From: an uncultured virus (IMG/VR IMGVR_UViG_3300023283_000176)
Lineage: Duplodnaviria > Heunggongvirae > Uroviricota > Caudoviricetes
Length of the DNA: 20,000 nucleotides
Strand: one strand, 5' to 3'
Virus record (IMG/VR): IMGVR_UViG_3300023283_000176
Shown: one piece after another, positions 1 to 17,965 of the stretch
How positions within the stretch are numbered: the stretch's first letter is position 1
How the letters are laid out: the number at the start of each line of letters is the position of its first letter
Notes under the pieces: model-generated
Databases searched by the model: none
What the model saw: only the letters and a program-made list of their open reading frames with translations
Told to the model about the DNA's origin: nothing
Translations under genes and position numbers: made by a program

Positions 1-3000
1 TTTTAAGTGGTACGTTGAAGCTTAACTGATTGTCTGTTATAGGATCACCCACGTTGATTTTAGTGGCAGGGTCAAAATTACCTGCGTGCCATACGGGGTC
101 AGTGCCTATGTTTACGCCTGCGAATTCCACAATGTCAGATGGACTTATAGATTGGGGTAGGGAAAGAGTGATGTCATCATTAAGTACCGCACCATTAGAT
201 GTAGTAACGCTTACTTGGTTAGCTGTGCCTAAAAGTGAACCACTTTGTACTACCAATGAGTCACTATTCGACACCGTAACATCAGAAGTTGCCCAATTAC
301 TTGAAACAAAACCTTTTTTATTGATAGCTTTAATTCTATATTCAAATACACTGGACGGGTTGTTTATTGTAATACTGTTTAAAATTCTAATAAACTGTGT
401 GCCTTTAACTCTTGCAATAGGTTCATAACCTTGTGAATCTTTGTTTTCTTCGATAATATATTCAGAAATGGGTTGTGTCATAGGTGGGTCCCATTTCAAT
501 TCCACAATTAAATTTCCGCCTTTTGATTCGTTTGATGCCGTGAAATTTGGAACATCCGGGGCAGGGATGATTTCAGTTGTTTTTGATAAACCTTGTAATC
601 GACCAACTCCATAAGCAAAGCGTTGATTTGGGGTGGCAGTAATTGTTATCCCCCTGTTGCTTATGGTGGTTTTAGTTTTATATTCATTGACTTTAATATT
701 GGTTACATCAATTCCTTGAAAAAATGCTCCCGAGAAAAAAGAAAGACGTGCAAAAGAATAACCTGTAGTGTGGCCCATCACTGCCCAACTGGATGGTTGA
801 GTTTCAGACTCTAAATCAATCTCGGAAACCACATCCCAATTGGTCCCGTCAGTAGACATTTCCAATCTGGCTTTTATGTCTGTAACCGGTTGACCAATTG
901 TAGATGTTGTTTCAATATCAAAAGTGATTTCAATAGCCACATCACTGTTCTCAATATTAACAGAATTGCTGTTTGTAATGTGGTTCCCAATCGCAAAAGG
1001 TGGTGGGGTGTGTGTTAACGAAGTGATTGACTTTTCAACAATTAAAGAAGTTGGAGATGTCGGATCAGAAGCATTGTGTTGGAACAATAATGCTTGTGTC
1101 ACACCATCATCTTCATATAATTTAATACTTGGATCAGACGCATTAAACTCCATACCACCTTGAGGGGAAATGCTTTCAAATCTGTCCCCAAAAATCTGAT
1201 AAGAACCAAGTGTTGCATTCAACGCAAACAAATCGTTCACCGTTATCTTATCAGCAGTAATTGAGCCATCAATGACTTGACCTGTTCCAACAACGTTCGT
1301 ACCAAGTCCATCAGCTCCAAGTACCAAGTTACCATCCTGATCAAAGACCTCAAGCCCCCAATCAGTCGTAGCCGTACCAAGTTTACCTATATTGATTCGA
1401 CGCTGTGGTGTGGTCTGTGTGTCGTCGATTTGAATAAGTGACCCGTCTGCATCAATCACCATATTGCCTGCCCCATTTTGTATTCTGCCAGCGGTCAGAA
1501 CACCCATCGAAGCACTTAACGCTGAAAGTTGGGCAACGTTGATTAAATTGGCAGTGATTTCATTAGCTCCAATCTCGTTAGCTGTTATTACTCCCGCACC
1601 TATTTCATTCGCGGTAATCGTGTCAGATGCTATTTCAAGAGCAGTGATGGTCCCTACCCCAATTTCATTGGCTGTAATCGTGTCGCTGGCGATCTCATTC
1701 GCAGTAATCGTATCGGAAGCAATGTAATTAGCCGTTATTTTGTCGGCCCATATTAGTTCTGAGGTAATAGATGAAGTGAAAGCTGTGTTGGCTATAAGGG
1801 TCTCGGTCCATACTGTTGAACTCACAAGTGAATCTATGAACGCGGTGTTGCCAACAATTTGATTAACGTCCAATTCATTTGTTGTAATACTGTCAACAGC
1901 AATTTCATTTGCAGTGATTGTGTCAGACTCTATTTCATTTGCAGTGATTTGATCCGCACCAATATTATTAGTTGTAATTGTGTCAGTAGCAATTTCATTG
2001 GAGGTAATAGTTCCTGCAAAAATTTCATTCGCCGTGATTGTGTCAGTAGCAATTTCATTGGAGGTAATAGTTCCTGCAAAAATTTCATTCGCAGTAATCG
2101 TATCAGATGCTATTTCAAAAGCTGTTATTTGGTCCGCACCGATATTGTTTGCGAGTATTGTTCGAGAAGCAATTTCATTTGCTGTTATCTCACCTGCTCC
2201 AATTTTGGTGGCTATAATAGCACCAGTAGCTATTTTTGGTGTGGTTATGGATGCGTCATTAATTTGGGTCTCAGTTATCTGACCTGTAATGTTCGTCGCT
2301 GAAACATTGGAAGTCCATTCTGACCCCGTGTCCCGATACACTGTATTGTCAGTTGTTAAAAATACAATTCTGCCTACATTACCAGGTGAGGGTAGTGTGT
2401 CCACTCTTTCAATCGGTGCGAGTCCATCTGCGAATTTACTAATATCAATAACTCCTTCACCATCCGTCAGTTTAGTGTCAATGTCTGCCTGTAATGCAGG
2501 TAATTCGACATCATTTAAATCAGCTAAATCTGATTCAAGTGCGGGGATGTCTGTCGTCTCAAGTGTGTCTAAACGAGAATCTAAATCAGGTAATTGAACC
2601 AAATTCAGGTCATCAATGTCTGCCTGTAATGCAGGTAGTTCGACGTCGTTAAGATTACTCAGATCATTTTCTAAAGCAGGTATTTTGATCGTGTTTAATT
2701 CATCAACGTTGGTTTCCAGTGCAGGAACTTTAGTGGTTTCAAGTGTGTCTAAACGAGAATCTAAATCAGGTAATTGAACCAAATTCAGGTCATCAATGTC
2801 TGCTTGTAATGCAGGCAACTGATTATTGTTCAAATCGTCCAAATCAGCTTCAAGGGCAGGTATTTTTACGTTATTTAACTCGTCTAAATCAGCCTGTAAT
2901 GCAGGCAACTTTGTGTTATTAAGTTCGTCAATCGCATCTTGTGCATTGGATAAGTCAAGTGATAATGAATCAATGTCAAGTTCAGAGCCTATTTGAATTG

Positions 3001-3124
3001 CGAGATCCGCAAGTTTTTGTACTTGTACCTCACCCATAGGTGTCCATGTAAAGAACCTATTTGTGTCAGAAACAGAACTAATTATTTGTTCATCAAGTAA
3101 ATCAAAGGACTCTAAAACAGCCAT
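1..3124 (-). CDS. Long tail fibre / host-specificity protein (partial, >1040 aa, runs off the left edge; absent from the ORF track)
   Basis: Manual translation from ATG 3124 (abutting the TAA at 3125-3127) is open to the window edge: MAVLESFDLLDEQ... It contains 15-aa repeats, the motif KFADGLAPIERVDTLP..RIVFLTTDNTVYRDTGSEW..ITGQIT seen in J-like tail proteins, 25 decapeptide ITANEIASDT-type repeats, an FN3-like domain (about 270-565: PAPDVPNF..VELKWDPP..SEYIIE..FEYRIKAINKKG) and the fibre motif VWHAGNFDP (68-94). Confidence 0.88.
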   Translation of the reverse strand, partial: MAVLESFDLLDEQIISSVSDTNRFFTWTPMGEVQVQKLADLAIQIGSELDIDSLSLDLSNAQDAIDELNNTKLPALQADLDELNNVKIPALEADLDDLNNNQLPALQADIDDLNLVQLPDLDSRLDTLETTKVPALETNVDELNTIKIPALENDLSNLNDVELPALQADIDDLNLVQLPDLDSRLDTLETTDIPALESDLADLNDVELPALQADIDTKLTDGEGVIDISKFADGLAPIERVDTLPSPGNVGRIVFLTTDNTVYRDTGSEWTSNVSATNITGQITETQINDASITTPKIATGAIIATKIGAGEITANEIASRTILANNIGADQITAFEIASDTITANEIFAGTITSNEIATDTITANEIFAGTITSNEIATDTITTNNIGADQITANEIESDTITANEIAVDSITTNELDVNQIVGNTAFIDSLVSSTVWTETLIANTAFTSSITSELIWADKITANYIASDTITANEIASDTITANEIGVGTITALEIASDTITANEIGAGVITANEIGANEITANLINVAQLSALSASMGVLTAGRIQNGAGNMVIDADGSLIQIDDTQTTPQRRINIGKLGTATTDWGLEVFDQDGNLVLGADGLGTNVVGTGQVIDGSITADKITVNDLFALNATLGSYQIFGDRFESISPQGGMEFNASDPSIKLYEDDGVTQALLFQHNASDPTSPTSLIVEKSITSLTHTPPPFAIGNHITNSNSVNIENSDVAIEITFDIETTSTIGQPVTDIKARLEMSTDGTNWDVVSEIDLESETQPSSWAVMGHTTGYSFARLSFFSGAFFQGIDVTNIKVNEYKTKTTISNRGITITATPNQRFAYGVGRLQGLSKTTEIIPAPDVPNFTASNESKGGNLIVELKWDPPMTQPISEYIIEENKDSQGYEPIARVKGTQFIRILNSITINNPSSVFEYRIKAINKKGFVSSNWATSDVTVSNSDSLVVQSGSLLGTANQVSVTTSNGAVLNDDITLSLPQSISPSDIVEFAGVNIGTDPVWHAGNFDPATKINVGDPITDNQLSFNVPLK
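1529..2278 (-). repeat. 30-bp / 10-aa tandem coding repeat (ITANEIASDT-like), 25 units in unbroken register
   Basis: Units start every 30 nt from 2278 to 1558; 1977-2032 is identical to 2037-2092. Confidence 0.9.
2459..2953 (-). repeat. 45-bp / 15-aa tandem coding repeat (LPALQADxDDLNxxx), 10 units plus one degenerate unit
   Basis: Units start every 45 nt from 2908 to 2503, with a degenerate unit at 2953; 2559-2635 and 2739-2815 match over 77 nt with one mismatch. Confidence 0.9.
2996..3012 (-). promoter_or_regulatory. Near-palindromic TTGCGG-ATC-TCGCAATT site (intragenic copy of dispersed motif)
   Basis: Minus strand AACTTGCGGATCTCGCAATTC aligns with AACTTGCGAGGTTCGCAATTC at 8182-8202; function inferred. 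Confidence 0.45.
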
Positions 3125-3532
3125 TTATTTTAGTTTAAAAAACTTATCATTTATAGAAAGGAACCCTCTTGAACCAAGTTTGACAAAATAGATTTTTGGG
3201 ATTACTCCAAAATAATTTTCAATCCCCTCTAAAAAATCCTCAGTCACTTTAGTTAACTCGTATGTCATATAAGGGATTTCGGGAGACTCAATGATTGATT
3301 CAAGTACTGACTCTACAGAAACCAATTCAATGTTTTCAGTATTGACAACACCAATTGCTTCAATGTTGTCAGGAGTAACAATAATAAATTCTGTTTTATC
3401 AGAAGGGATTAAAGACTCAAGAATGGATGACATATTAGCCGTGACCGCATTCTCGTTCATAATAGGAGTTGGTGTTATAGATTGAAGTTCAGTCTGAAAA
3501 TTATTTAATGTGTTTAATTCTGAGGATTTCAT
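3125..3532 (-). CDS. Hypothetical protein in tail module (135 aa)
   Basis: ATGA overlap with the upstream gene, TAA abutting the fibre ATG, acidic composition like its neighbours; no recognised motif. Confidence 0.75.
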   Translation of the reverse strand: MKSSELNTLNNFQTELQSITPTPIMNENAVTANMSSILESLIPSDKTEFIIVTPDNIEAIGVVNTENIELVSVESVLESIIESPEIPYMTYELTKVTEDFLEGIENYFGVIPKIYFVKLGSRGFLSINDKFFKLK

Positions 3533-3825
3533 AATTCAAATGGGTCATCCCCAAAGTGCAGTAAAAAATCTCTTGAAACGACAAGTTCGTCAGTGTAAAT
3601 TTTGATGGAATATTCTCCTGTAGGCATGTCCACAGGTGATTCAATGACCATTACTGTTTCTTGATTAGGTGGATTTCCCACAGATGTGACACCAGTTGCA
3701 TCTAAACTATATTCTGTTCCATCATCTGCGAATGCGGAAGCGTGTAGTGTCTGTCCATCAAGATCAAGTTCTGACGTAAATTTGATCGGACGTTTTGTGT
3801 CGCCCTTGAATAATTCAACTGCCAT
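3529..3825 (-). CDS. Small beta-rich virion protein, possibly BppU-N/Ig-like tail adaptor (98 aa)
   Basis: KGDTKRPI..LDLDGQT..PTGEYSIKI resembles the GDT..DLTG.T..G.Y pattern of BppU-N-like domains (recalled, not searched); preceded by AACCTCTAAACCC. Confidence 0.6.
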   Translation of the reverse strand: MAVELFKGDTKRPIKFTSELDLDGQTLHASAFADDGTEYSLDATGVTSVGNPPNQETVMVIESPVDMPTGEYSIKIYTDELVVSRDFLLHFGDDPFEL

Positions 3826-3833
3826 GTTGGGTT

Positions 3834-3846
3834 GGGTTTAGAGGTT
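3834..3846 (-). promoter_or_regulatory. AACCTCTAAACCC start-proximal element
   Basis: Exact 13-mer 8 nt upstream of ATG 3825, overlapping the upstream TAA. Confidence 0.75.
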
Positions 3847-6742
3847 ATCTTCGTTTTACAAGATAATCAAAACCTATGGAACGAAGAAAAAATCCCTCGA
3901 CAACAGAACGAATTTTCCAGAAAAAACTTCGAGAATTATTTGATCTGCCTGTTCCAGGTTTTATACCGATCTTGTAACGACCATTAATTTTAGTTTTCTG
4001 TGTGAGATCAACAATATATGGATTCTCAAAATATTTGGAATCATAATGTAATTCCAAAAGACCAAGGTTTGGGCTTTCAGTGTCTACATATAGTTTACGA
4101 TATCGTTTTAATTGGGTGGGTGCATCTAATGTGTTTGCAGTAGATGTTATTTCGGTAACAAATTGATCTCCGCCAAAATCATTGCCTTGATTATGCAAAT
4201 TGTACTGATCATTCCTGAAAGCCATAAGCTCATCAGCAAAATGTTGGCCTACCACATTACCATACGTATAAGGACCCATCCATTCACCCAATTCAAAAGA
4301 ATATGCATATGTTTTTGCAGTAACACCCTGTGGAATAGGTATGGACACGCTATTTTGATTATCAGTATTATCAAGTCCTTCAAATACTGTCAACCTGTAT
4401 TCTTTGTTACGTGGGTCAATCATTCCAACGCATGTGTCACCAATTTCAATAGAGCCATTGGTTAAATTCTGCATTTGTCCGTCAAACATCCATACATCTC
4501 TTGTATCTGAAAAAATGACCATTTTTTCAAATTCAACAATCGAATTGTATTGAATATGCGGTACAGATTTTAAAATCCATTGTGGGTTATGTAGAAACTG
4601 TGAAGATTTGATAAAAATATCACCAGAATCGTTTTGGGCTAACTGACCACCCGCCTGACTCACAGCCACGGCTCGTTCACAAAATATTAACAATGTGTTA
4701 CGGTGTGAGGCCAGTTTAATTATTTTACCGTATTCAGTGGGCACATCAAGAAATGATGTAAACAAATACTTTCTGGCACCAGATCTATTCGAACCCACGA
4801 CTGTCTTTTCAGACCACACTAACTGGTTAGGGAATTCTTCTTCAAGTAATTTTAAATCTTCTTCAAGTAATAATCTTTCAATTACATTGGATTCGAGCAA
4901 ACGTGGAAATATTAAAGATTCTTCCTGCACATATTCAAATCCTGTGTGTTTAAAACGCCCATTGAAAAGAAAATTCTGTGTAAAAGTAGTTTGGTCATAA
5001 TAACTACCGATGTAAATTAAATTGTCGTTGATGAATTCGTCAGCTTCGGTGGAATCAAAAATAGTGTTTGCTTCAAGACCAACATGTAAATCAAACGTAT
5101 CTTGAAATAATGTCTCACTACCTGGTACGGCGATTTGGTCAATCTCTGAACCTGTTGGGTCAGGAAGTTCAAAATCAACGCCTACCAATTCAAAATTAAA
5201 TCTTGGAGTCAAACCACCGTCTGTACGTATGAACTCGTCTCCACGTAAAATGTCCGGATCGAAATCGAATCTATCGTAATTACCAACTGTGTCCTGATTG
5301 TTGATTCCGCGCCTGTCTATTCGCGAATAAATTGAATCAAAAGGTAAAACCAAATAAATTCTGGATGATGGTGGTATGAGTAAATGTCCGTGATCTGTGG
5401 CTCTTACGTCCGCAGAAAATGAAGTATCAACAACGGAATCAACTGTTTCTTCAAAATCAACAAAATCAGAAGAATCTACCTGTGTACTTAAATTGACCAA
5501 ATTCTTCAATCTGACCTTTACATCCGCTACCCTAACAGCCCGTTCTAATGAATCTGCAAAGGATAATTTGTAAACATATTCATATAAAAAACCATCCGGA
5601 GGGGCATTATGAAATGCGTTATCCTCATGATCATCATCAACAATTATATGAGCGTGTCTGCTATAAGTAAGCGGTTGTTGTTCAACGAAGGATTTTTCCA
5701 AAAAATCAGGCACAAATTCAGATGCCTCTACAGCATCTATAAAATTACCACTGCCTGTATCAGGAATAAAAACATCCACCTCATCAACAATAATGAAATC
5801 ATTTATATTGACGTTCTCAATCCTCTGAAAATCTTCATCACGAATAATATCAAAATATTTTGCGGTCCAATTCCCAGAAGTTGAGTTAAAACCGTAATTA
5901 GCAAAAACTCTTTTAAAAAATTTAAAACCAAGAAAAATCTGTGGCCGATTGTTGAAAAAAGGTAATTCTGTTTGTGAAGAAGCTAATGTTTGTACGTTCT
6001 GATTATTGATTTCAATAGAATTAAAAGGGATGGTTAATTTATCTTCTTCATTGATGTTCGGGTCTTTTTGGACTCTCAAAAACAACGCAACGACTTGAAA
6101 AGAACCATCAAAATCGCCACTCACATCAGGTATAGGATTCAACTTTAAAGTCTTGTCCCTTTCAATATTTTGCAGTTCATTTGAAACTGGCATGTGGAAA
6201 CTATCTTGACCATCAGGAAAAACTACTTTCGCATATAATTGGACTGTTGCATTAGTTGGTAATGTTGGGTTACCTTCTTCCACGGCCACATCAACTGTCT
6301 CGATGTTGAACAAGCGAGGGAAATTTACAGACCTTTCAGGATATACCAAATCACCCCTGATGATACGATCTTCCATCTCTGTTTGAGTTCCGTGTTTTTC
6401 AGTGTAAACGATTTCTAAATCATCAAGGTCGTTGCCTTCAAGTTTGCCGTCGTCTACATATTCAATGAACTTTATCTCTGTACCTAATACCGTTTCTTGG
6501 TTAGGATCGACAGTTTCAATATGTCTGAATGGTGTGTCTCCTTCTTTTCGATATATTTCAACTCGGGCATATTTGACATCCGTTGGTTTTGAATGCAAAT
6601 CCTCAGATACTACAATATCTAAATCCGCTTTTCTCTGGGTCAAATCGGTGCGGATGATTTTTGGTTGAGACACCATACTAACATGCCCATCGACATACTG
6701 GTGTCTATAAACATAATAATATGTTTGATCGGGTTTCAACAT
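3845..6742 (-). CDS. Tail nozzle / muzzle (tail stabilisation) protein, main part (965 aa)
   Basis: Position after the ring genes; C-terminal NQLVWSEK..FLDVPTEYGKIIKL..NTLLIFCERAV and LKRYRKLYVD..RSFFWKI..LRSIGFDY resemble crAss muzzle / P22 gp10-type proteins. Confidence 0.7.
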   Translation of the reverse strand: MLKPDQTYYYVYRHQYVDGHVSMVSQPKIIRTDLTQRKADLDIVVSEDLHSKPTDVKYARVEIYRKEGDTPFRHIETVDPNQETVLGTEIKFIEYVDDGKLEGNDLDDLEIVYTEKHGTQTEMEDRIIRGDLVYPERSVNFPRLFNIETVDVAVEEGNPTLPTNATVQLYAKVVFPDGQDSFHMPVSNELQNIERDKTLKLNPIPDVSGDFDGSFQVVALFLRVQKDPNINEEDKLTIPFNSIEINNQNVQTLASSQTELPFFNNRPQIFLGFKFFKRVFANYGFNSTSGNWTAKYFDIIRDEDFQRIENVNINDFIIVDEVDVFIPDTGSGNFIDAVEASEFVPDFLEKSFVEQQPLTYSRHAHIIVDDDHEDNAFHNAPPDGFLYEYVYKLSFADSLERAVRVADVKVRLKNLVNLSTQVDSSDFVDFEETVDSVVDTSFSADVRATDHGHLLIPPSSRIYLVLPFDSIYSRIDRRGINNQDTVGNYDRFDFDPDILRGDEFIRTDGGLTPRFNFELVGVDFELPDPTGSEIDQIAVPGSETLFQDTFDLHVGLEANTIFDSTEADEFINDNLIYIGSYYDQTTFTQNFLFNGRFKHTGFEYVQEESLIFPRLLESNVIERLLLEEDLKLLEEEFPNQLVWSEKTVVGSNRSGARKYLFTSFLDVPTEYGKIIKLASHRNTLLIFCERAVAVSQAGGQLAQNDSGDIFIKSSQFLHNPQWILKSVPHIQYNSIVEFEKMVIFSDTRDVWMFDGQMQNLTNGSIEIGDTCVGMIDPRNKEYRLTVFEGLDNTDNQNSVSIPIPQGVTAKTYAYSFELGEWMGPYTYGNVVGQHFADELMAFRNDQYNLHNQGNDFGGDQFVTEITSTANTLDAPTQLKRYRKLYVDTESPNLGLLELHYDSKYFENPYIVDLTQKTKINGRYKIGIKPGTGRSNNSRSFFWKIRSVVEGFFLRSIGFDYLVKRR

Positions 6743-7224
6743 TATGCTATGGGTTCACCTGCTTGGATTCGTGGATAATCAGGTACAAAATCATTAAAAA
6801 AGTATTCACCTGATATAAAATTTATCATTTTATTAAATGGAGAAATGAAGATTGTAGTGTGTTGTAATAACATTTCGCCATTATCTAAACCGGGGTTTAC
6901 GCCAAGATCAAACGTTGTGATTAATAATGGGTCGTCATATCTATCAGTTACATCAAAGATCTTGATTTTAGTAGTCCCATCTGTTTTGATATAATAAACC
7001 ATCATATCTTGGTTTGATGAAAAGGTGATATCAAATATACGACTGATATCAATATCATTGAGAATGTCTTTCTCAAGAAACCCCTCAATACGAGCCACAC
7101 TCATCGTATTCCCTCTGTCAGATATACGAGCATTCTTTAAACCAAAAATACGATTTGGTTCTGCTTTGTAAGGATCAATTCGTTCATTGATCCCTTTTTG
7201 AAATCTAAGCGTTTCTTGTCTCAT
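6742..7224 (-). CDS. Probable N-terminal portion of nozzle/muzzle protein encoded as a separate ORF (160 aa)
   Basis: FQKGINERIDP..PN....KNARI resembles nozzle/stabilisation-protein N-termini; TAATG-coupled to both neighbours. Confidence 0.6.
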   Translation of the reverse strand: MRQETLRFQKGINERIDPYKAEPNRIFGLKNARISDRGNTMSVARIEGFLEKDILNDIDISRIFDITFSSNQDMMVYYIKTDGTTKIKIFDVTDRYDDPLLITTFDLGVNPGLDNGEMLLQHTTIFISPFNKMINFISGEYFFNDFVPDYPRIQAGEPIA

Positions 7225-7967
7225 TATAAGCTCTTATTGCGTGGGGTTTTGCTAATATATCGGATGCGTTTATTTTCGCGTTTCTGTTTGTATCTCTGTG
7301 TACCAAAATGACGTGGTTTTAATCTGACATGGGGACGATTTTTTGTTCCTCTCCATTTTCTTGAAACATCATGAGCTTCTTCGCTGGCCTCTAATGGGTC
7401 GCCTATACCAAGTATCCTTTCTACCTCAGTAATGATCGCATTCCAATAAGTGTCATCCAAATTGCGGATGTATGTTTCAGTCGGTTTGAAATAATATTCA
7501 ACAAAAATTAAATCATTTACTTCTTTAGGAAACGGGGCGATCACCAATACGTTTTTAAAATCATCTTCGTTTGTAAGATTTAACCGTGGTGTAGAATACA
7601 ACGGTTTGTTCTTCATTTTAGCAATGCGTTCGATATTGAAATGATTGTCCCAAAATTCCAGGTCGAGTTTTCGTTCATTCACTCGAATATCGTCCAATTC
7701 AGAATAATCGTCCGGCAACATGAAATAAGAAAATAAATGTTCACCATTACGATTAATATATTTTTTCCCATCTTCTGGTAAATACTGTACTGTCTTTGGG
7801 GGGATGACCGACCGATTTTGTAACTTAATGATGGCTCTCTTAACATTGAAAGGGATACTATTTAGAATGTCCTCTCTATTTGTTTTCACAACCTGATCAT
7901 CAACCACTCTCTCTTGTGGTATTTTAGTTTTGATGGCTGTACGTACTACTTCATAAATATTACTCAT
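7224..7967 (-). CDS. Putative tail ring / adaptor protein with basic C-terminal tail (247 aa)
   Basis: ATG 7967 overlaps the upstream stop (ATGAGTAA) and is preferred over GTG 7973; YFMLPDDY..VIAPFP..VEYYFKP pattern of tail tubular/adaptor proteins. Confidence 0.65.
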   Translation of the reverse strand: MSNIYEVVRTAIKTKIPQERVVDDQVVKTNREDILNSIPFNVKRAIIKLQNRSVIPPKTVQYLPEDGKKYINRNGEHLFSYFMLPDDYSELDDIRVNERKLDLEFWDNHFNIERIAKMKNKPLYSTPRLNLTNEDDFKNVLVIAPFPKEVNDLIFVEYYFKPTETYIRNLDDTYWNAIITEVERILGIGDPLEASEEAHDVSRKWRGTKNRPHVRLKPRHFGTQRYKQKRENKRIRYISKTPRNKSL

Positions 7968-8823
7968 CGTCACTCACCTGTTGCGGTTGTGGGGTTGTTA
8001 GTTTACGTAATATGGAATTAACTACCTGTTCACGAGTTTGAAGAATGACAGAAGTACTTAATGGGATTTTTTCTTCTGGTTTTTCGATTTTTACCCAATC
8101 CGGAATGTACCAAATATGGAAAAAACCTATATCATTAGATATGTATAAATCACCACTGTTCTCACTAAATGTATAATGTGAAACTTGCGAGGTTCGCAAT
8201 TCTCGAAATGGTAAATAATAAGGCTCAACCAAAGCGTCGCCAACAAACATCCAATAATGCTGTTCAAGATTAGATAAATCATTAGTGAAATCCACACTGG
8301 CTTCAAAATTCTGTGTAGCCCTGTAATATTTTCCATTTTGTACTACATAAACCAATTGCCCAGTCTCAATTTGTTCACCCGTTACCAAATAAGTGACCTC
8401 ATCAGAAAGGAATGTCAGTGATTTTGAAGCAACATTTTGTACGTCATTCACTGCGACATACAATTTATCATTTATGCGGGCAAGTGTGTCTTTTGAAAAT
8501 GTTTGTGGTGTGTCTTTGATCTTATTATTGGTAACATAACCAATGGCACGAATAATGGATTGATGTGGATCAAGATCATTTTCGGGTGGTGGGTCCAACT
8601 TAACCTTTTTAAATTGGGTACTGATCGCCGAAGGGTTGGGTAAATTAAATGTTTTTTCAATCGCATATCGCTCATCATTGCCTTGTTTAATGTCCTGACT
8701 TCGTGCAATTGGAGCGAACAGATTGAACTCTCTGATTATATCCTCAGTAAAAATTTCGCTTCTGCTTAACCCTTGTGTGGTTAACATTGTAGTTACCAAC
8801 TCGGTAAAATCTTTTAATGTCAT
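7960..8823 (-). CDS. Putative tail ring / adaptor protein with inserted CBM-like modules (287 aa)
   Basis: TAATG-coupled; helical N-terminus and C-terminal LYI..IWYIP..IPLS as in adjacent adaptors; central beta-rich insert. Confidence 0.6.
   Translation of the reverse strand: MTLKDFTELVTTMLTTQGLSRSEIFTEDIIREFNLFAPIARSQDIKQGNDERYAIEKTFNLPNPSAISTQFKKVKLDPPPENDLDPHQSIIRAIGYVTNNKIKDTPQTFSKDTLARINDKLYVAVNDVQNVASKSLTFLSDEVTYLVTGEQIETGQLVYVVQNGKYYRATQNFEASVDFTNDLSNLEQHYWMFVGDALVEPYYLPFRELRTSQVSHYTFSENSGDLYISNDIGFFHIWYIPDWVKIEKPEEKIPLSTSVILQTREQVVNSILRKLTTPQPQQVSDDE
8185..8204 (+). promoter_or_regulatory. Palindromic TTGCGA-GGT-TCGCAATTCTC site (intragenic)
   Basis: 20 nt identical to 12680-12699; function inferred. 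Confidence 0.55.
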
Positions 8824-9985: not shown

Positions 9986-10018
9986 TGTCGTAGGGTTTAA
10001 ATTTGAAGTTAGGGGTTT

Positions 10019-10052: not shown

Positions 10053-10061
10053 CGAGTCGGT

Positions 10062-11408
10062 TTATTCTTCCTCAATCGCCGCCGTATATTGTAAGAGTGT
10101 AGTTTTGAGTCCCTCAGTCGTTTTAACACGCATGATTTCTTCCTCATCACCACCGCTTTCTTTGAAGGTCTCACTGGATGGACCTTCATTCCTCATCACG
10201 AGCCGCTCAGTAGATTGCTCAATCGGAATAAGCATTCCGACAGCTTTACCGGCTCCTTCCCTCAACGAACCCCCTACGAGTGGGTGTTTGTATTCTAAAA
10301 TGGGTGCATGAACAAAATCAATGACTCCGAGATTATGTTCAAATCGCATGGTTCGGACACCAGCTACAAATTCGTTTCCGTAAAACCTTTGCTTGTCCTC
10401 AAATGCTTTACTCAAGTAGGAAGCGAATTTACCGCTGATAAAGCACTGTCGGAAATCAGGTCCGCCAGATTCAGCGCCAAAAGCAAACTCAATCAAAGCA
10501 TAAATGCTATTCTTGAATGTTTCTTTGTCAAAAGAACCAGATACTTGTGTTTGTAGTGTGTGTAGGTTCTTGCTGGACAATCTGTCCCAAAGACCGGCAG
10601 AAGTGTGTACCTCGTCGCCATTGTCCAGGGTCACGGTATTGTCAACTCCATAGATATAACCAAGAGACCGAGATCGTCTAAGTTCTTTAAACAGATCAGC
10701 TTCCTGTTCCATAAGGAAATCCAGAAAGTGTTCTTGGTTGTTAGATCTCGGAGTGTAGCCGGTATCATGGACAATTTTTCGAATGAGAGTGTACTCCATT
10801 GTGGAGATTTTACCTCTGGGTTCCGGATCGTAATTCCGGTCAGAACCTCTTAGGGCGTCCATTCGATCAATTTTAGCATCGGCCTTGTCTGCAACAGGCA
10901 AAGTTGTGCCGTCGGCTGAATCAAGTACCATTGACACTTTATTAGCATCAACTGTATTGATTTCGCGGATAATACCAAAACTGTAAGAAGAATTGGTGTC
11001 CACATAACGCACTCTATCTCCCACACGGAAAATATTAGCGTCCTCTGGACTTACTTCAAAATTGGCTCTGGTTGCAGGAACATAAGATGTCCCACCACTA
11101 ACGTTGTTAATAACGTCATCGGCGTCAGTTACTCCTGTAGCCAGACCAGTCGCTTCATCAGGTAAAAGGTCGTCCTTATTGGTCCATTCATGTTTAAAAT
11201 TGGTTACGGTATCAAATCCACCGAACAACTGAATAAAAGTGTCGATGGTATTGTCATAAGGTTTGTATAATGCTACTTCTCTTGCAACGCTTCTCTTTTT
11301 GAAAGAGCCATAGCCTGCGTCTTGTCCCAGTCCCTCGTCATACGATGTAAGAATATCGTATTGATTAAGAACGGAATTGGGTGCATTTCCGTCAATTTCT
11401 AAAGCCAT
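10062..11408 (-). CDS. Major capsid protein (HK97 fold; SU10/DUF5309-like) (448 aa)
   Basis: Portal-scaffold-capsid order, followed by a terminator; TNFKHEWTNKDDL and ELRRSRSLGYIYG..HTSAGLW resemble DUF5309 capsids (recalled). Confidence 0.85.
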   Translation of the reverse strand: MALEIDGNAPNSVLNQYDILTSYDEGLGQDAGYGSFKKRSVAREVALYKPYDNTIDTFIQLFGGFDTVTNFKHEWTNKDDLLPDEATGLATGVTDADDVINNVSGGTSYVPATRANFEVSPEDANIFRVGDRVRYVDTNSSYSFGIIREINTVDANKVSMVLDSADGTTLPVADKADAKIDRMDALRGSDRNYDPEPRGKISTMEYTLIRKIVHDTGYTPRSNNQEHFLDFLMEQEADLFKELRRSRSLGYIYGVDNTVTLDNGDEVHTSAGLWDRLSSKNLHTLQTQVSGSFDKETFKNSIYALIEFAFGAESGGPDFRQCFISGKFASYLSKAFEDKQRFYGNEFVAGVRTMRFEHNLGVIDFVHAPILEYKHPLVGGSLREGAGKAVGMLIPIEQSTERLVMRNEGPSSETFKESGGDEEEIMRVKTTEGLKTTLLQYTAAIEEE

Positions 11409-11416
11409 TAAATTGG

Positions 11417-11429
11417 GTGTTTAGAGGTT
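11417..11429 (-). promoter_or_regulatory. AACCTCTAAACAC start-proximal element
   Basis: 12/13 match, 8 nt upstream of capsid ATG 11408. Confidence 0.72.
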
Positions 11430-11434
11430 AATAA

Positions 11435-12634
11435 TTAAAGATCAAGTTTGTATTTGTTTTTTCTTTGGTTTAGATCTTTAGACATACGTTCAAGTTGTCT
11501 CTGCCTCATTTTATCTTCTATTGTTTGAGGTTCTTCTTTTTTACTTCTTGATGTTTCTTGACGTTTACCTGTAGTTGTGAACAATCTCTGTTCTTTTTTC
11601 TCTGACTTTTTATTATCAGTGTCTTGATCATCGTCCACCTGTGGTTCAATACCACGTCGGTTCATAACTTCCTGGGTCGCTTTTAGTACAGCGTCCTCAC
11701 GGATCAGTCGTTGGTCTTTAGGATCACGAAAAGACTTGGCTTCTTCATAAATTTCGTCAAACAAGTCTTTATGTTCGTTCGTGAAATTGAGACCAAACTC
11801 AACCACGGCTTTGTCAAAACCATCTTCAAAACGGGCTGTGTTGGTGTTGCTCAGTTGCTGTCTTTCAGCTTGTTGAGCTTCTTTTTGCTTCGCCTCTTGC
11901 AAGCTCTGTTGAACCTGTTTATTTACGAGGTTTGGCATCTGCTCGTTCATAAACTTAGATTGAGCAGTCAATATGGCCCGTTCTCTATCGAAATCGTTCA
12001 GATTATCAAAATTCTCATCCAAATAACCTGACTCAATGAGTCGTTCAGTTGTGGGCAGGTACTCATCGTCGACTCCGAGTTTACCTTGATCTTTAGATGT
12101 GTTGCTCGATTTACCATCTGGCTTCGAGCTTTCAAGATTAATCAGGCTCTCGACATCTTCATTTGCTACCGCCTTTTCAAAAAGTGAGCGCAGTGCAGGG
12201 TTTTTTTCAAGAACATCTTCAACCTTAGAAGTTACTTGCTTCGTCTGATTGTATTCGTTCAATACCTTTTTGTGCGCCTGATTCAGCTTATTGTACTCAC
12301 GTTGTGATTCAAGGTAGCTGTTTTCCAAATTCTCAACGTTCCCACCAAAAACTTTGTCAAGAACTGACTGAGAATCCTTTTGATCAGCCGACCCAACCTC
12401 GTCGGAGTCGTCATCTGAATCTTCATTTTCAAGATAAGAACTATTATTATCGTTTCCAAGATTTTCCTCGCCAACAGAAGAATTTTTTTCGTCGCCATCT
12501 TCTTGTTCAGATTGATCTTGTGAATCGTTTTCATTAATGTCCTCATCATTTTGGTCGTTTTCGTTTTGACCTTGTGCATTCTGGAATGCTTGTTGTAGTG
12601 ATTCTTTACGAGCTTTTTCTAATTCATCCATCAT
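11435..12634 (-). CDS. Capsid scaffolding protein (about 399 aa)
   Basis: Between portal and capsid; acidic low-complexity N-terminus, LENSYLESQREYNKL coiled coil, charged C-terminal helix. Start is ATG 12634 or ATG 12631. Confidence 0.8.
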   Translation of the reverse strand: MMDELEKARKESLQQAFQNAQGQNENDQNDEDINENDSQDQSEQEDGDEKNSSVGEENLGNDNNSSYLENEDSDDDSDEVGSADQKDSQSVLDKVFGGNVENLENSYLESQREYNKLNQAHKKVLNEYNQTKQVTSKVEDVLEKNPALRSLFEKAVANEDVESLINLESSKPDGKSSNTSKDQGKLGVDDEYLPTTERLIESGYLDENFDNLNDFDRERAILTAQSKFMNEQMPNLVNKQVQQSLQEAKQKEAQQAERQQLSNTNTARFEDGFDKAVVEFGLNFTNEHKDLFDEIYEEAKSFRDPKDQRLIREDAVLKATQEVMNRRGIEPQVDDDQDTDNKKSEKKEQRLFTTTGKRQETSRSKKEEPQTIEDKMRQRQLERMSKDLNQRKNKYKLDL

Positions 12635-12639
12635 TGTAG

Positions 12640-12652
12640 GGGTTTAGAGGTT
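12640..12652 (-). promoter_or_regulatory. AACCTCTAAACCC start-proximal element
   Basis: Exact 13-mer 5 nt upstream of ATG 12634 and 8 nt upstream of ATG 12631. Confidence 0.75.
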
Positions 12653-12658
12653 AATAAA

Positions 12659-14917
12659 TTACTGTTGTACTTGTTGTTGTTGCGAGGTTCGCAATTCTCC
12701 CTCACGATTTGTTCTATCTTCTATTGCTTGTAATCTGTTTGGTTCATTAGCGTTTCTTTGTAAACTGTTGCCACCATTAAACTGTCTGCCTTGAGGTTGT
12801 TCATTTTGTTGCTCTTGGCGTGCTCTCTCTGCTTGTAGTCTTGCTTGTTTGATAATTTTATCAGCGTTCTCAGCAGTCATATTTGGATCATTCAAAAGGA
12901 TCTCTTGCAGACGTTGTATGTCAACACTGTTTTGTAATTGATCTCTCATTTGTTCACGTCTAAATTCTTTTAGGCGTCTTATAATATCAAACCGATTTGG
13001 ATGTGAACTAAATTCAAGAGCTATTTCAAGTGGGACAGCACCACCAAAAGCAAGTTCCATCATACGATCTTCAAATTGATCGTTTGCTTGATGATCCTCT
13101 GACTTCGGTCTCAGTGTAAATGAAAATTCGCCGGATTTAATCCCGGATTCAAACAGAGCAAAATCAACTTGTTCATCGAAATTGGTTTGGGCAAACTGTC
13201 CCATTTCTTTACCAATTAAACGCGAAACTGCTTGTGGATTTTCTTTTGCGTAGTCAACAACAGATGGAACCATTTTCTTCTTGTAAAAGGATTCCAAAGC
13301 ACGAACAAAATTATCAAATATCAATCCATTCGTAGTTTCACCTTGTTCGATCTGCATTTTGAATCTGGATGCTGGGGTTTCGCTTTGAGTGACCCCTAAC
13401 TGAGCCAAATTAACACCTGAAACTCGGAACAATCTATTGTCGTAATCAGCAATGATGTTGTTAATGGCAGGAATGCCTTCGCCTACAGTATTAATCTGTG
13501 TCATAACATCATTAATACTACGATTATATTTTAATTTAAGTACCAGCATGCCGCCAATTCTGGTGTATTCATCGGCAATGTCAGTAACGTCCAAATCTGA
13601 ATCGTCTAAGACTTTTTGATCAACAACCAACATACCTTTCGCCGAGTGTGCCATCATCAACTCTCGAATAGCCAGGGCTTTGTTTAATGCCACAATAATG
13701 TCCTCAATGTCCTCAAGAAAACCATTAAAGAACCCATCATTGTGTTGGGGAAAAAAGGGTCCATAAGGATGTGTATCAAAAGGATATGGTGATCGTTGGT
13801 GTAAAAATAAACTGTTAAAAGCGAAAACCATTTGAAACCATACAGGTAAATAATCAACATTCAATTCAAATCTCTGATCTACCATTGCTAATACTCTTTC
13901 ACGCGCATCGTCACCAAGTAATAGTTCTTCATCAGATGTGCCTTCAACTTCTTGTTGGATGTCATTGAACATTTTAATTGCTAACGCATCCAAAACTTTA
14001 TCTTCGGTCATCTCAGGTGGTGCATATTGTTCATCACCTGTCTCCGTGTCTGTGATCAAAATCCGTTCTTCAACATCACGATAATACAAATCCATGACCT
14101 TTAACTGCATGGTATCTTGATCATCAAATCTCCACCAATTTCTCCACCTTTGATGGGGTTCAAAACGATTACGATGTCTCTTATTGGTATAAAATTCAAA
14201 CTGTTCACGAATTTGCTCGGCATGGTCGGGAAACGCTTTAACTATGTCCGATTCATACCAACGTACCTTATCACCAATGAACTCAACATCAGAAAGATCA
14301 TACTCAATGCTGTTTGTGTCCCATATCATTCGATTAAGTCCTCGACGAACGGGTACGGGACGACCGTATTTATCCAAATCGACTTTTAAAAAATCTGCCC
14401 CGGTAATCGCTCCACCCTCAAAACAATCTGATTCTTTCCATTTGGTCCCATTAATGTCACGTAATTTGGTCAGTAAACCAGAAACCATTTGTGCATATTT
14501 ATCATCTGCATGTTTTGCATAAAAATCTCTGGCTTCTTCAATACTGTTAAAAAGGTCAATGTTCTTTTCAACAAAAGTGTCGACATACTGTTCTTTACGA
14601 TCTGTACTATGTATATCCAACGGAACAAATTCATACTCGAAACGTCTGGCTCTTTGTTTCGATATCAGATTATTGATAAGTGGTCGAGCAACCGAAAACT
14701 CAATTGGTGTGGCGTCAAATGATTCGAAAAATTCAATATCATCTTCCTGCCATACAGCATTTTTATGAAGATTGAGCATTCGTTCTCCCGTATCATATTC
14801 GTCTGAAAGCTCAATTTCTGCCTGATTAATGCGTTCAGTCCATTGATTGACTAAATCCATTGCCTCATCATCAGGGAGGTCTGTAAAGTTGATAAATGCG
14901 TCTTTAGAAAAATTCAT
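12659..14917 (-). CDS. Portal protein (P22-like, with Gln-rich C-terminal extension) (752 aa)
   Basis: Directly after terminase; IWDTNSIEYDLSDVEF, SPYPFDTHPYGPFF..GFLEDIEDIIVALNK and RVSGVNLAQLG are typical of P22-type portals. Confidence 0.9.
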   Translation of the reverse strand: MNFSKDAFINFTDLPDDEAMDLVNQWTERINQAEIELSDEYDTGERMLNLHKNAVWQEDDIEFFESFDATPIEFSVARPLINNLISKQRARRFEYEFVPLDIHSTDRKEQYVDTFVEKNIDLFNSIEEARDFYAKHADDKYAQMVSGLLTKLRDINGTKWKESDCFEGGAITGADFLKVDLDKYGRPVPVRRGLNRMIWDTNSIEYDLSDVEFIGDKVRWYESDIVKAFPDHAEQIREQFEFYTNKRHRNRFEPHQRWRNWWRFDDQDTMQLKVMDLYYRDVEERILITDTETGDEQYAPPEMTEDKVLDALAIKMFNDIQQEVEGTSDEELLLGDDARERVLAMVDQRFELNVDYLPVWFQMVFAFNSLFLHQRSPYPFDTHPYGPFFPQHNDGFFNGFLEDIEDIIVALNKALAIRELMMAHSAKGMLVVDQKVLDDSDLDVTDIADEYTRIGGMLVLKLKYNRSINDVMTQINTVGEGIPAINNIIADYDNRLFRVSGVNLAQLGVTQSETPASRFKMQIEQGETTNGLIFDNFVRALESFYKKKMVPSVVDYAKENPQAVSRLIGKEMGQFAQTNFDEQVDFALFESGIKSGEFSFTLRPKSEDHQANDQFEDRMMELAFGGAVPLEIALEFSSHPNRFDIIRRLKEFRREQMRDQLQNSVDIQRLQEILLNDPNMTAENADKIIKQARLQAERARQEQQNEQPQGRQFNGGNSLQRNANEPNRLQAIEDRTNREGELRTSQQQQVQQ
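12680..12699 (+). promoter_or_regulatory. Palindromic TTGCGA-GGT-TCGCAATTCTC site at the 3' end of the portal gene
   Basis: 20 nt identical to 8185-8204; 27 nt from the scaffold start element. Confidence 0.55.
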
Positions 14918-14918
14918 A

Positions 14919-16793
14919 TTATCTTCGGCCTAATTTCGATTGTTTTCCTTTCAATTTATTTTCATCTGGATATTTGTATCCGCGTCCACGTCCTTTACGG
15001 CCCAATTGTGATTGTTTCTTGCCTCTTGACCGCATTCTTTCCTGAGTAATGATTTGTTCATAATCTGTCCCTTCATCATTCATTTTGGCAATTTCTTCTT
15101 CCCATTTATCACTGCCCCATATACAAAGGGCCATAGCAATCACTTGGTCATCATGTTTTCCTTCTTTAGCTTCTGGTCGTACGCGTCCATTCTTCCAGAC
15201 TTTAACAAAATCAATATGTTCTTGGACGGCAGATAAATCAGGTATTTTATCGTAATTGTCTCTCAACCAAATTTTATAATCGTCAAGTAATAATTTTCTT
15301 GTTTCTTTGTTGGTTTGGAATCCAAAGTTTAATCTATTACCAACCGTCATAAAATAAACTTCACCATTGTATGGGATTAATCCGTCCGGTTTGATGATGT
15401 TCACCAAGGTTGCGAGGTTGCTCTCAGGAATTAAAAGACCTGTGTTGTAGTAATACCCTATTTTCATCATAACAAGGGCAAGTTTATCTTCGTCCATTCT
15501 CCCATACCATTTAGCTGGAAAATTTTCTTCCAAGCGATCATATACAAAAATAGCACCATAGTCGCCACCCTCTACATTACGGGATGGATCTGCTCCAATG
15601 ACGTATCTATTCTCCCATGTAGGATCTGGTTCGACATAGACTTTTAAATTACCGTCTCCAATTTCAAATTCGATGTCATCATTGATTTCACCATAAACAT
15701 GATCTTTTTCGCCTATATTTTTTAAATTTTCTTTTACCGTGAAAAGGGTTTGTGAATTAAAAAAACAAGTATCAGTAGCTAAAAAGGCGTCTTTTGGAAA
15801 TGTCGGATAATATCTATAAGCTTCGTTCAAATCATAGGAGCACTTATTTTTAATACACCACCGATACCAATTCACTCGTTCAAGAGAAAGACCCATTTCA
15901 TCAATCATGTATTCTTCTCTTTCCTTGTATTTGTCCTCTCCAATGGTTCCAAAATCTACACCATCCAAATCTGTCATTTGATTTTTGTATAGTGGCAACA
16001 AATACTTACTGTGTTCGTACCACGGCAAAAAAACAGGTCTATATCCATCAAACTGTTCTTTAGCGCCGGACTTAAATTTAGACCATTGTTCTTCCGATGT
16101 GTCCCATAGTTTATAAAATCCTTCACCAGTGCCCGAAATGCCGTTTGCTGTTGATTCAAGATTCACAAAAATGTCAGCTTTACGTGGTAATGCTTGAGAA
16201 GTAGAACTAAGTACATCCTTGAAGTGTATGTAATTTGCACATTCACTTAAATGGACTGCATTCAAAGTAATGCCTTTACCAACATTGTCTCCACCACCAG
16301 CAGTTCGGACGTTTAATCGGGAACCAAGTCCCTTAAACTCCATTTTTTTACCACTCAATGATTTTGTTTCCGGCCTAATTGGGTAATCAGATTGAATTAT
16401 ATTGCCTTCATCATCTATGATATCAACAGTGGTGGGCATATTTGTATATGCTCTTGTGTATATATCATACAACAATTGTGTTGTATCATCATCGTGAGCA
16501 AGGACTTGTACATTGTAGAGATCGACCAAACTCATGTTATCAATGTTTCGGAGTCCTGTGTCTGTACTCACACCCAATTGTCGCCCTTTTAATGTGATCA
16601 GACGAATTTGTGCATGACCATAAATTTCTTTAGTGCGCTTTTTTTCTTCTTCAATTATCTTATTTAAACGTAACTGAGATTCGTTGGGAGTGTATGTGAT
16701 TAGACGATTGTCCTCAGAACGAATATGGTATAGATGGGGCGCCCTTGTAATAAAATCACGAAAATCTCGTATGTTGATTTTAGGATTCTCCAT
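14919..16793 (-). CDS. terL: Terminase large subunit (624 aa)
   Basis: Walker A ITLKGRQLGVST, Walker B AVHLSECA, coupling motif LESTANG, RNase H-like nuclease motifs YVIGADPS and HDDQVIAMAL. Confidence 0.95.
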   Translation of the reverse strand: MENPKINIRDFRDFITRAPHLYHIRSEDNRLITYTPNESQLRLNKIIEEEKKRTKEIYGHAQIRLITLKGRQLGVSTDTGLRNIDNMSLVDLYNVQVLAHDDDTTQLLYDIYTRAYTNMPTTVDIIDDEGNIIQSDYPIRPETKSLSGKKMEFKGLGSRLNVRTAGGGDNVGKGITLNAVHLSECANYIHFKDVLSSTSQALPRKADIFVNLESTANGISGTGEGFYKLWDTSEEQWSKFKSGAKEQFDGYRPVFLPWYEHSKYLLPLYKNQMTDLDGVDFGTIGEDKYKEREEYMIDEMGLSLERVNWYRWCIKNKCSYDLNEAYRYYPTFPKDAFLATDTCFFNSQTLFTVKENLKNIGEKDHVYGEINDDIEFEIGDGNLKVYVEPDPTWENRYVIGADPSRNVEGGDYGAIFVYDRLEENFPAKWYGRMDEDKLALVMMKIGYYYNTGLLIPESNLATLVNIIKPDGLIPYNGEVYFMTVGNRLNFGFQTNKETRKLLLDDYKIWLRDNYDKIPDLSAVQEHIDFVKVWKNGRVRPEAKEGKHDDQVIAMALCIWGSDKWEEEIAKMNDEGTDYEQIITQERMRSRGKKQSQLGRKGRGRGYKYPDENKLKGKQSKLGRR

Positions 16794-17548
16794 TATACTA
16801 TTTTTCTGACTTTTATGTCTTTAAGAGAACCTACGGCCGTTTTGGTTTGGTCGATTAACCATTCAATATCTTCTATATCAAGATTCACAGATTGTGTCTC
16901 AAATTGGACCCCAATGAACCCTGCTTTGTTTTTAGAAAGGGTTTTAAAAACAGGAACTAACAACAATGATTGAACACCGTTATCTTCCATCAACCGACGT
17001 AAATTTTTCGGGGCCTTATGTTGTGATACAAAAGCAAAACCTTGTCGGTTCATTTGCTTGTATCCCTTCATGATTAAATCCATCGAACGATTGTACATAT
17101 CTTCTTCTGGAACTTTTACCCCAGGTTCTCCCTGATATCGAACAATTGTGAATCTGCCGGAAGGAAAATCGCCAAAATTGTCTCCATTGTGGTACTTACA
17201 CACAAAAACACATTTCGCGCCAAATCTTGATTTAATTTTTTGAAGTAAATCGTCCATTTGCATTTTCAACAAATCAGACGGAAACGCGACAAATTTTTTC
17301 AGTGTTTTATTTTGTGTGAGGTATCCTGAAATTATTGCGATCACCCCACCACCCAACAGGAAATAAGATATTTTATCTTGTCCAAAAAAAGTGGGTTCGT
17401 GAATGAACCCCTCAAGAAAGCCTATGATGGTGCATGTATAACCAAAAACCTTTAAAATTTTTCCCAAAAGTGAATCGTCAGCACGTAAACGATCAGAAAT
17501 TAAATTGAAAATTGTGCTGACGTTAATGGAATCAAAAATGGTTTTCAT
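16793..17548 (-). CDS. Membrane protein with two TM helices and a C-terminal GAF-like domain; holin candidate (251 aa from ATG 17548)
   Basis: Hydrophobic ILKVFGYTCTIIGFLEGFI and ISYFLLGGGVIAIISGYL; FGAKCVFVCKYHNG..NGVQSLLLVPVF..AGFIGVQF is a GAF pattern; TAATG-coupled to terL. Confidence 0.6.
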   Translation of the reverse strand: MKTIFDSINVSTIFNLISDRLRADDSLLGKILKVFGYTCTIIGFLEGFIHEPTFFGQDKISYFLLGGGVIAIISGYLTQNKTLKKFVAFPSDLLKMQMDDLLQKIKSRFGAKCVFVCKYHNGDNFGDFPSGRFTIVRYQGEPGVKVPEEDMYNRSMDLIMKGYKQMNRQGFAFVSQHKAPKNLRRLMEDNGVQSLLLVPVFKTLSKNKAGFIGVQFETQSVNLDIEDIEWLIDQTKTAVGSLKDIKVRKIV

Positions 17549-17560
17549 GGATTGCAAATG

Positions 17561-17573
17561 GGGTTTAGAGGTT
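17561..17573 (-). promoter_or_regulatory. AACCTCTAAACCC start-proximal element
   Basis: Exact 13-mer 12 nt upstream of ATG 17548. Confidence 0.7.
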
Positions 17574-17683
17574 GTACTTGGATAAATACAAAAGCAAAAT
17601 AAGAGTTATTTAGTTAAAAACCTGAAAATTCCTTGACAACAGATCAAAAAAATAATAACCAACCAAATTCGTGTGGAGAAGTC

Positions 17684-17701
17684 TTGCGAAGTAGTTCGCA
17701 A
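17684..17701. promoter_or_regulatory. Palindrome TTGCGAA-GTAG-TTCGCAA (operator-like)
   Basis: 7-bp perfect arms, 51 nt downstream of the left TTGACA; same half-site as the dispersed motif. Confidence 0.55.
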
Positions 17702-17830
17702 AAAAAGAAGTGAATCAAAGCCAATACAAAGACATAACTACTCCGTAACTTAAATAGAACGTTTCATCCTTACTCTTTCACTAATCTATCCAAACAATAC
17801 TGACCCAAAATAAGAAAGGTAAAGAATTAA

Positions 17831-17931
17831 TCCCCCCTATAGTCCCCCCTTGATAAGAAAACGAAAGAAACAAAGGGGGTTCTTTTCTTTCCTTTCTTTT
17901 CTCTTTCTCGTTCCTTCTTCTCTTTTTTCTT
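17831..17931. other. TCCCCCCT-ATAG-TCCCCCCT core, CCCCCTT/AAGGGGG stem and 52-nt polypyrimidine tract; origin- or terminus-like
   Basis: Direct repeat at 17831-17838 and 17843-17850; stem 17845-17851 with 17873-17879; 17880-17931 has one purine. Function inferred. Confidence 0.45.
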
Positions 17932-17965
17932 GCGAGGGGTTCGCAATTTTGCGAGTGTCGCAATT
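17930..17965. promoter_or_regulatory. Tandem palindromes TTGCGA-GGGGT-TCGCAATT and TTGCGA-GTG-TCGCAATT (operator-like)
   Basis: 17930-17948 and 17949-17965: four alternating half-sites in 36 nt. Confidence 0.6.

Follow-up and report, generated by a model that had tools for sequence, protein, structure and literature searches.

What does a short palindrome do that recurs along the late genes of an uncultured tailed virus? The question is raised by 20,000 nucleotides of IMG/VR record IMGVR_UViG_3300023283_000176 (Caudoviricetes), the whole stretch being referred to here as the window. An earlier annotation made from the letters alone (the sequence-only reading) had proposed that the motif TTGCGR-N3-YCGCAA marks binding sites for a dimeric protein distributed along the genome. 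The word is real, is selected at the level of DNA, is found throughout a podophage family, is fairly evenly spread, and is at chance level in host chromosomes. Very probably it is a site on double-stranded DNA for a protein, and that this putative binder is encoded by the phage is somewhat favored. The preferred reading is that a predicted dimeric, phage-encoded protein silences or roadblocks the prophage from these sites, with a probability of roughly 0.4 for the whole as for the silencing role itself.

A palindrome spread through a temperate podophage family

By its gene content, the window is the late part of a temperate podophage of SU10/crAss-like type, with an SU10-type capsid and adaptor, a P22-like portal, a terminase, a match to a crAss-like muzzle protein, a fibre, and a divergent exonuclease/RuvC operon. 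The four copies and the two longer-spacer variants of the original annotation are all present (Table 1), the four-copy count comparing with 0 in 200 dinucleotide shuffles. Also reproduced were the identity of the 8185 and 12680 copies over 20 nt (repeat family D6) and the peptide ELRTSQ that both encode in two different proteins. As a look-elsewhere control, any spaced palindrome with 5-nt arms was counted in 300 codon-resampled windows. GC-rich palindromes with four copies occurred in 0/300, and with AT-rich arms allowed, four-copy palindromes occurred in 31/300.

A search with the window's capsid returned 59 relatives, one of them in Gracilimonas sp. Q87. Neither the portal nor the capsid had relatives among the IMG/VR or GenBank phages searched. 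Thirteen metagenome loci were located by capsid homology alone, independently of the motif, and perfect TTGCG-N5-CGCAA sites were present in nine; the four site-free loci are only 1.9-5.0 kb long. Sites were then counted in the window, the Q87 relative and seven loci, leaving out the four short loci and the near-duplicates L007 and L012. In these nine podophage sequences 30 sites were counted where codon-resampled controls predict about 0.30, and the enrichment that the sequence-only reading had proposed to look for beyond the window is found in the eight relatives, with 26 sites against about 0.27. Open reading frame (ORF) calls place 28/30 sites within genes, two of them through start-codon artefacts, leaving about 26/30, many in essential genes. 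The sites are read in two frames, as L-R-x-S/T-Q and as x-A-x-x-A, and the chance of LRxSQ being coded as the palindrome is 0.002 under the window's codon use. Together with the codon-resampled controls, these observations bear out the suggested selection on DNA rather than on peptide.

The consensus needs a correction. While the palindrome itself stands, position 6 can be A, T or G (mainly A within the window's own clade and T for the two most divergent phages), so that the invariant unit is a 15-base palindrome of 5+5+5 architecture, TTGCG-N5-CGCAA. The arms are unchanged among site-bearing phages whose capsids are 37-76% identical. The portal site is an identical 15-mer in the window, the Q87 prophage and relative L006, with diverged flanks; the site in the 287-amino-acid (aa) gene is kept in L006 with an altered spacer, while in the Q87 prophage two changes disrupt it; and sites in terminase and adaptor genes are common to other phage pairs and absent from the window. 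Site number and spread are better conserved than site position, with turnover between lineages. A spacer of a Balneolales CRISPR array, at L091:10270 (G183:C81), has at its end the same 15-mer, letter for letter, as the portal site of the window.

The Q87 relative is a 74.7-kb prophage flanked by a 25-nt repeat of the 3' end of the transfer-messenger RNA (tmRNA) gene, an attachment-site (att) duplication, and encodes a tyrosine integrase, PolB, a helicase, UvsX and Sak. Because this member is a tmRNA-bounded prophage with att duplication and integrase, the family is temperate in Balneolaceae, at least in the Q87 member. The prophage carries six perfect sites and two one-mismatch sites of the TTGCGA type.

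Host chromosomes and unrelated carriers

In the Q87 genome, 6/8 sites lie inside the prophage, and the 2 outside equal the 2 of a reversed-pattern control. Among 283 Balneolales genomes, only three (G001, G014 and G166) hold at least four TTGCGW-N3-WCGCAA sites, and no genome-wide excess of the word was present in 301 Bacteroidota genomes. Outside the elements, five genomes together hold 24 one-mismatch sites, where the control gives 26. An HK97-type capsid locus occurs in 18/283 Balneolales genomes (whole prophages unconfirmed), and as each of these 18 genomes has at most one site, the word is element-specific. A host organiser of the parS/matS type, one of the original suggestions, is disfavored by host chromosomes at control level. 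The relaxed pattern was also matched by chance through repeated families in a few genomes (controls 35 and 9); the 11 relaxed matches in genome G024 turned out to be a different repeated centre and not the palindrome.

The word also occurs in three elements outside the podophage family. The first, G002, is a fragment of an HK97-type siphophage unrelated to the podophages, with five sites in 23 kb. Its nearest named capsid relative is an Aliifodinibius prophage (48% identity), and its packaging module comprises an HK97-type capsid, a Terminase_4 small subunit and an HNH protein; with the window it has one fibre repeat and two other cis words in common. The other two are tmRNA islands in genomes G014 and G166 (Table 1). 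Their integrases are 93% identical to each other and 38% identical to that of the Q87 prophage, they have a 38-nt att repeat, and they use the same attachment gene as the Q87 prophage (tmRNA) at about 1/6 of its size. Their cargo differs and includes an OLD-TOPRIM ATPase and UvrD pair, Schlafen AlbA_2, PemK-like, NERD and SAP proteins. Since it was the motif that led to all three elements, their site counts are no independent test of enrichment, yet coincidence is unlikely because the preferred centre is matched too. Among 52 stretches obtained by scanning IMG/VR for the motif, the G002 contig alone carried several sites. Among the matches listed for 168 further loci, at least seven had more than one: G002, two tight tandem clusters, one four-site locus with three sites within 330 nt, and three two-site loci of 50-59% GC. 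In G002, moreover, one site is succeeded by a tandem array of three 27-nt units in which its right half-site recurs (L053:15199-15290).

Across 12 elements (the nine podophage sequences, G002 and the two islands), the gap between the arms is 5 nt in 46 sites, 4 nt in five and 6 nt in three, with none at gaps 0-3. The arms are fixed and the centre is free, and the inner pair is non-complementary in 11/46 sites, so the half-sites vary independently. For these reasons a dimer that contacts a pair of half-sites in double-stranded DNA would fit better than a hairpin. The family-wide enrichment and the dimer-like geometry thus agree with the proposed dimeric-protein sites, but two of the attached details do not hold. 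The polarity attributed to a trailing TT shrinks to a weak A/T preference at the flanks of the half-sites (47 and 50 of 92), with mixed orientation in G002, and the period of about 5 kb suggested by the window's gaps (5187, 4495 and 5269) is not seen in the relatives, gaps across elements ranging from 0.9 to 16.8 kb. On the sense strand the spacer is AACCT in several late-gene copies, and among the five G002 copies it is AGGTT in two and AACCT in one.

A silencing role and its alternatives

In the preferred reading, a dimer would read two 5-bp half-sites one helical turn apart, and the protein, bound every few kb, would act as a silencer or roadblock, so that late and lytic genes stay silent in the prophage downstream of the tmRNA. 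Odd-spacer copies in the divergent control region would tune the two facing promoters. The G002 siphophage and the two islands would carry the word through sharing or borrowing the podophage regulator.

The search for a phage helix-turn-helix (HTH) or ribbon-helix-helix (RHH) protein, which the sequence-only reading had recommended, yielded a family-specific candidate: P0062, a predicted HTH+RHH protein of about 205 aa. Its Q87 orthologue (L028:17151-17780, 48% identical) is a 210-aa ORF near the integrase end of the prophage. P0062 itself lies on a contig of 73,950 nt, the length recorded for the contig of the window's capsid, and the two presumably belong to one genome. The protein family has 45 matches, and the structural model has a predicted local distance difference test (pLDDT) score of 90. 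Among 400 further genomes of the class none gave a strong match, with six weak partial matches, and the candidate does not appear to be a host gene. Dimerisation of the candidate is a lead, resting on the RHH-like middle. No CI/Cro family was matched by any of 76 ORFs of the Q87 region, although remote members could escape. That P0062 is the binder is a tentative proposal, and we think it rather doubtful.

A number of observations weigh against the preferred reading or its candidate. Sigma-70-like promoters scoring at least 10 lie at 4/46 sites against 3.9% of random positions, and those scoring at least 9 at 10/46 against 18%; since sites are not enriched near promoters, classical operators account for only a few of them. 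The first 28 kb of the Q87 prophage are without perfect sites. The arms are invariant over the full range of capsid identity, in contrast to the immunity motifs of Cluster A mycobacteriophages, which drift with the repressor (PMC6550527; this and the other articles cited here are drawn on in excerpt). The candidate's HTH helices vary while the arms of the site do not, and in Q87 there is no site upstream of its gene and one inside it. Neither G014 and G166 nor the 23-kb fragment of G002 yielded the protein. Its fold matches are weak as well: the HTH-like N-terminus best resembles sigmaN (Z 6.4, root-mean-square deviation 2.8 over 61 residues), the RHH-like middle scores of 0.82-0.84 are leads only, the RHH plus C-terminal part gave no match at Z>=5, and Foldseek returned nothing at E<=0.001 for the candidate.

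The main rival, possible though in our judgement unlikely, retains the same kind of protein site and makes its role non-transcriptional, so that a phage protein would organise, segregate, protect or license phage DNA. It could be a MatP/StbA-like organiser, a block to a translocating nuclease or to a structural maintenance of chromosomes (SMC) defence, or a packaging or ejection cue, and the islands would bear the word so that they are handled like phage DNA. In post hoc tests, the spacing of the sites is more even than Poisson in the window (p 0.006) and, outside it, in six elements combined (p 9e-4) and in the four other phages (p 0.013). This evenness, the lack of promoter enrichment and the deep conservation of the arms, unlike an immunity motif, are consistent with such a role, as are islands that use the prophage's attachment gene at a fraction of its size and the second-best fold match of the candidate HTH, a weak one to the R388 partition protein StbA (Z 6.0, root-mean-square deviation 4.2, 66 residues). 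Against it stand the 28 kb of the Q87 prophage without perfect sites and the clustering of variant copies in control regions, and the different packaging module of G002 speaks against a common packaging signal. A more elaborate form, which we find rather improbable, would make the word a transferable 'treat as phage DNA' mark, with the HTH+RHH protein decorating the genome every few kb to protect, organise or license it, and with unrelated phages and gene-poor tmRNA islands having adopted the word to ride along.

Alternatively, a conserved host protein could bind the site and be exploited by the elements. One word across a podophage family, a siphophage with a Balneolaceae-type relative and islands without a regulator gene would be expected of such a binder, and so would arms that do not diverge. 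This is nevertheless a poor prospect: counts in the Balneolales and Bacteroidota genomes are at chance level, the two host copies in Q87 fall, judged from the sequences, within tag- and AcrB-like coding regions, the other capsid-bearing genomes lack the word, and the box of the Balneolaeota SOS repressor LexA is a different motif, the direct repeat TTACACATATTTTWTACATA (PMC7739468). A LexA site was rejected on this ground, and the excerpt of PMC8565304 holds nothing relevant beyond the LexA point.

A site for site-specific recombination or cassette shuffling, which in the islands would be the junction between captured gene cassettes, is the reading that fits the islands best. The island sites are all intergenic and lie in one orientation in 6/6 cases in G014 and 4/5 in G166, with a tyrosine integrase adjoining; several island-spacer alignments stop at the edge of the site, and a conserved flank of about 45 nt on one side is joined on the other, between cargo genes, by what we take to be attC-like remnants, judged by eye against the attC consensus. 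As a general explanation it is nonetheless quite improbable, with most phage sites inside genes, many of them essential, with spacers that differ so that overlap homology is missing, and with an integrase whose own att is the tmRNA T-arm repeat. At the window's sites, neither a variant nor a joint was seen among contigs from four sequencing runs of a single study, a shallow and weak test.

It is very improbable that the word acts as a small RNA or single-stranded DNA hairpin serving as a pause, processing or priming signal. A stem of 5-7 bp is possible, and variants with gaps of 4, 6, 7 and 8 nt exist, several of them in transcribed leaders; however, the stem sequence is invariant without compensatory versions, the loop length is nearly fixed, and the inner pairs are mismatched in the 11 sites noted above. 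The leader RNA folds no better than its shuffles (z 0.22), Rfam gave no match, and no long flanking hairpin common to the sites was found. Chance or a by-product of protein sequence, for which the common peptide of the portal and 287-aa gene copies might be cited, has a negligible probability, being refuted by the codon-resampled controls, the two reading frames and the intergenic copies.

Neighbouring features and known systems

One canonical and two variant copies sit between two facing TTGACA words in the window's control region, where the 35-nt inverted repeat I1 pairs the two putative promoter segments (Table 1). A strict sigma-70 scan of 17400-18200 called 0 promoters, neither putative facing promoter among them. 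Control-region variant copies occur in 4/8 phages (the window, L006, L015 and L018) and were absent from Q87, L010, L013 and L016. Between the facing words, positions 17837-17930 hold purine and then pyrimidine tracts that are strongly strand-biased and form the long stem of the leader fold. The promoter-like word CC(T/C)YGACAAC stands face to face in this region at 17631(+) and 18000(-), and again at 3895(+), antisense at the end of the muzzle-like gene; it is also present in L006, Q87 and G002. Further right, the N-terminus of the ORF at 19627-20000(+) is helix-turn-helix-like by eye, with no family match.

Table 1. Positions of palindrome sites, genes and associated features in the window, and of the two islands.
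Feature	Position	Strand	Description
TTGCG-N5-CGCAA site	2998..3012		spacer AGATC on +; 5' part of tail-fibre gene, read L-A-D-L-A-I; without counterpart at aligned L006 position
TTGCG-N5-CGCAA site	8185..8199		spacer AGGTT on +; in 287-aa virion gene, read L-R-T-S-Q
TTGCG-N5-CGCAA site	12680..12694		spacer AGGTT on +; last codons of portal gene, read L-R-T-S-Q
TTGCG-N5-CGCAA site	17949..17963		spacer AGTGT on +; divergent control region, between two TTGACA words
Variant site	17930..17946		7-nt gap between 5-nt arms; 2 nt from 17949 site
Variant site	17684..17701		gap of 8 nt; perfect arms of 7 bp around a 4-nt centre; 46 nt after rightward TTGACA
Tail-fibre gene	2..3124	-	PHROG tail-fibre matches; continues past window edge
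287-aa virion-module gene	7960..8823	-	carries site; homologues in all relatives aligned; weak PHROG match (E 0.002)
Major capsid protein, SU10 type	10062..11408	-	PF17236; marker for finding relatives
P22-like portal gene	12659..14917	-	PF16510, phrog_156; carries site
Large terminase	14919..16793	-	without site in window; one site each in terminase of L006, L010, L013, L015
Exonuclease	18066..18800	+	phrog_298; first gene of rightward operon; long leader contains three control-region copies
Putative rightward promoter	17609..17643	+	TTGACA at 17633-17638; would face exonuclease operon; proposed from repeat I1
Putative leftward promoter	17988..18022	-	TTGACA at 17998-17993; would face late operon; 17949 and 17930 sites directly after
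Second word ACCTCTAAAC(CC)	3836-3846, 11419-11429, 12642-12652, 17563-17573	-	also L006 at 9980, 17434
Second word ACCTCTAAAC(CC)	18049, 19609	+	
tmRNA island, 12.5 kb	G014:C4 199,900-212,400		6 sites, all intergenic; integrase and cargo only
tmRNA island, 13.4 kb	G166:C1 136,400-149,900		5 sites, all intergenic; integrase and cargo only

The 287-aa gene does carry the site; 'ring gene' is the label of the sequence-only reading, and the gene has only a weak PHROG match. A second word, ACCTCTAAAC(CC), stands shortly upstream of the start codons of six window genes. It has AACCTC in common with the palindrome's commonest spacer, and where the 287-aa gene of Q87 has its broken copy, the letters read like a hybrid of the palindrome and this word. 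In G002 (L056:15225-15280) it occupies the other strand, immediately behind a strong promoter-like sequence of TTGACT/TATAAT type, from which a transcript would be complementary to leaders with the second word. The Q87 prophage encodes, after its tail module, a 3023-aa protein (L025:16741 to L026:5809) that is probably ejected. Scanned as two pieces, it had no PDB or PHROG match, leaving a virion RNA polymerase with hairpin promoters unsupported.

Among published systems, the closest analogue is the 17-bp repeat TGTTCGG-N3-CCGAACA of Cluster O mycobacteriophages, whose binder and function the excerpt leaves unexplained (PMC4351075). Both words are dyad-symmetric with invariant arms and a free short centre, are spread genome-wide, intragenic and mostly off promoters, and are not host words. 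The present word differs in sequence and in its 5+5+5 geometry, with six perfect copies in the 74.7 kb of Q87 against 34 in Cluster O; its carriers are temperate, and it crosses to an unrelated phage and to islands. The Cluster A stoperators of L5 and Bxb1 are asymmetric, 13-14 bp long, transcription-oriented and present in 20-30 copies per genome (PMC6550527). They resemble the present sites in belonging to temperate phages and in being dispersed, intragenic and mostly off promoters, with few at the lytic control region. All 46 sites here, however, have perfect dyad arms, and Q87 has only six perfect ones. The word may work like a stoperator, but in symmetry, number and lack of drift it is not one in the strict sense. 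Unlike lambdoid CI/Cro operators, the sites are mostly dispersed, and the divergent region separates the late operon from the exonuclease operon and not cI from cro. For a temperate phage whose genome is dotted with symmetric repressor sites there is a precedent in phiC31, where conserved inverted repeats are bound by the c repressor. For the islands, a parallel may be drawn with SGI1, which carries sites responsive to AcaCD, a regulator that comes from a conjugative-plasmid helper and acts as an activator at promoters (PMC4605294, PMC7826253). In both cases an integrative island would carry sites for a putative helper-encoded regulator, although the link between helper and island here is drawn from the common word and common attachment gene.

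The system had been put forward as undescribed. In the literature on phage repeats and Balneolaceae phages (subscription papers and supplements being outside this scope) no description of the word or of its spread over unrelated elements was found, but dispersed phage palindromes as such were noted earlier, in the Cluster O excerpt without a binder or function (PMC4351075). The phages of this host group are little studied. In the present case conservation of the word extends across an entire temperate family that is uncharacterised, and the intact-looking prophage in Q87 together with the family-specific HTH+RHH candidate makes the question testable. Its sharing with an unrelated phage, and with islands of integrase plus cargo that use the same attachment gene, suggests regulation across elements or piracy.

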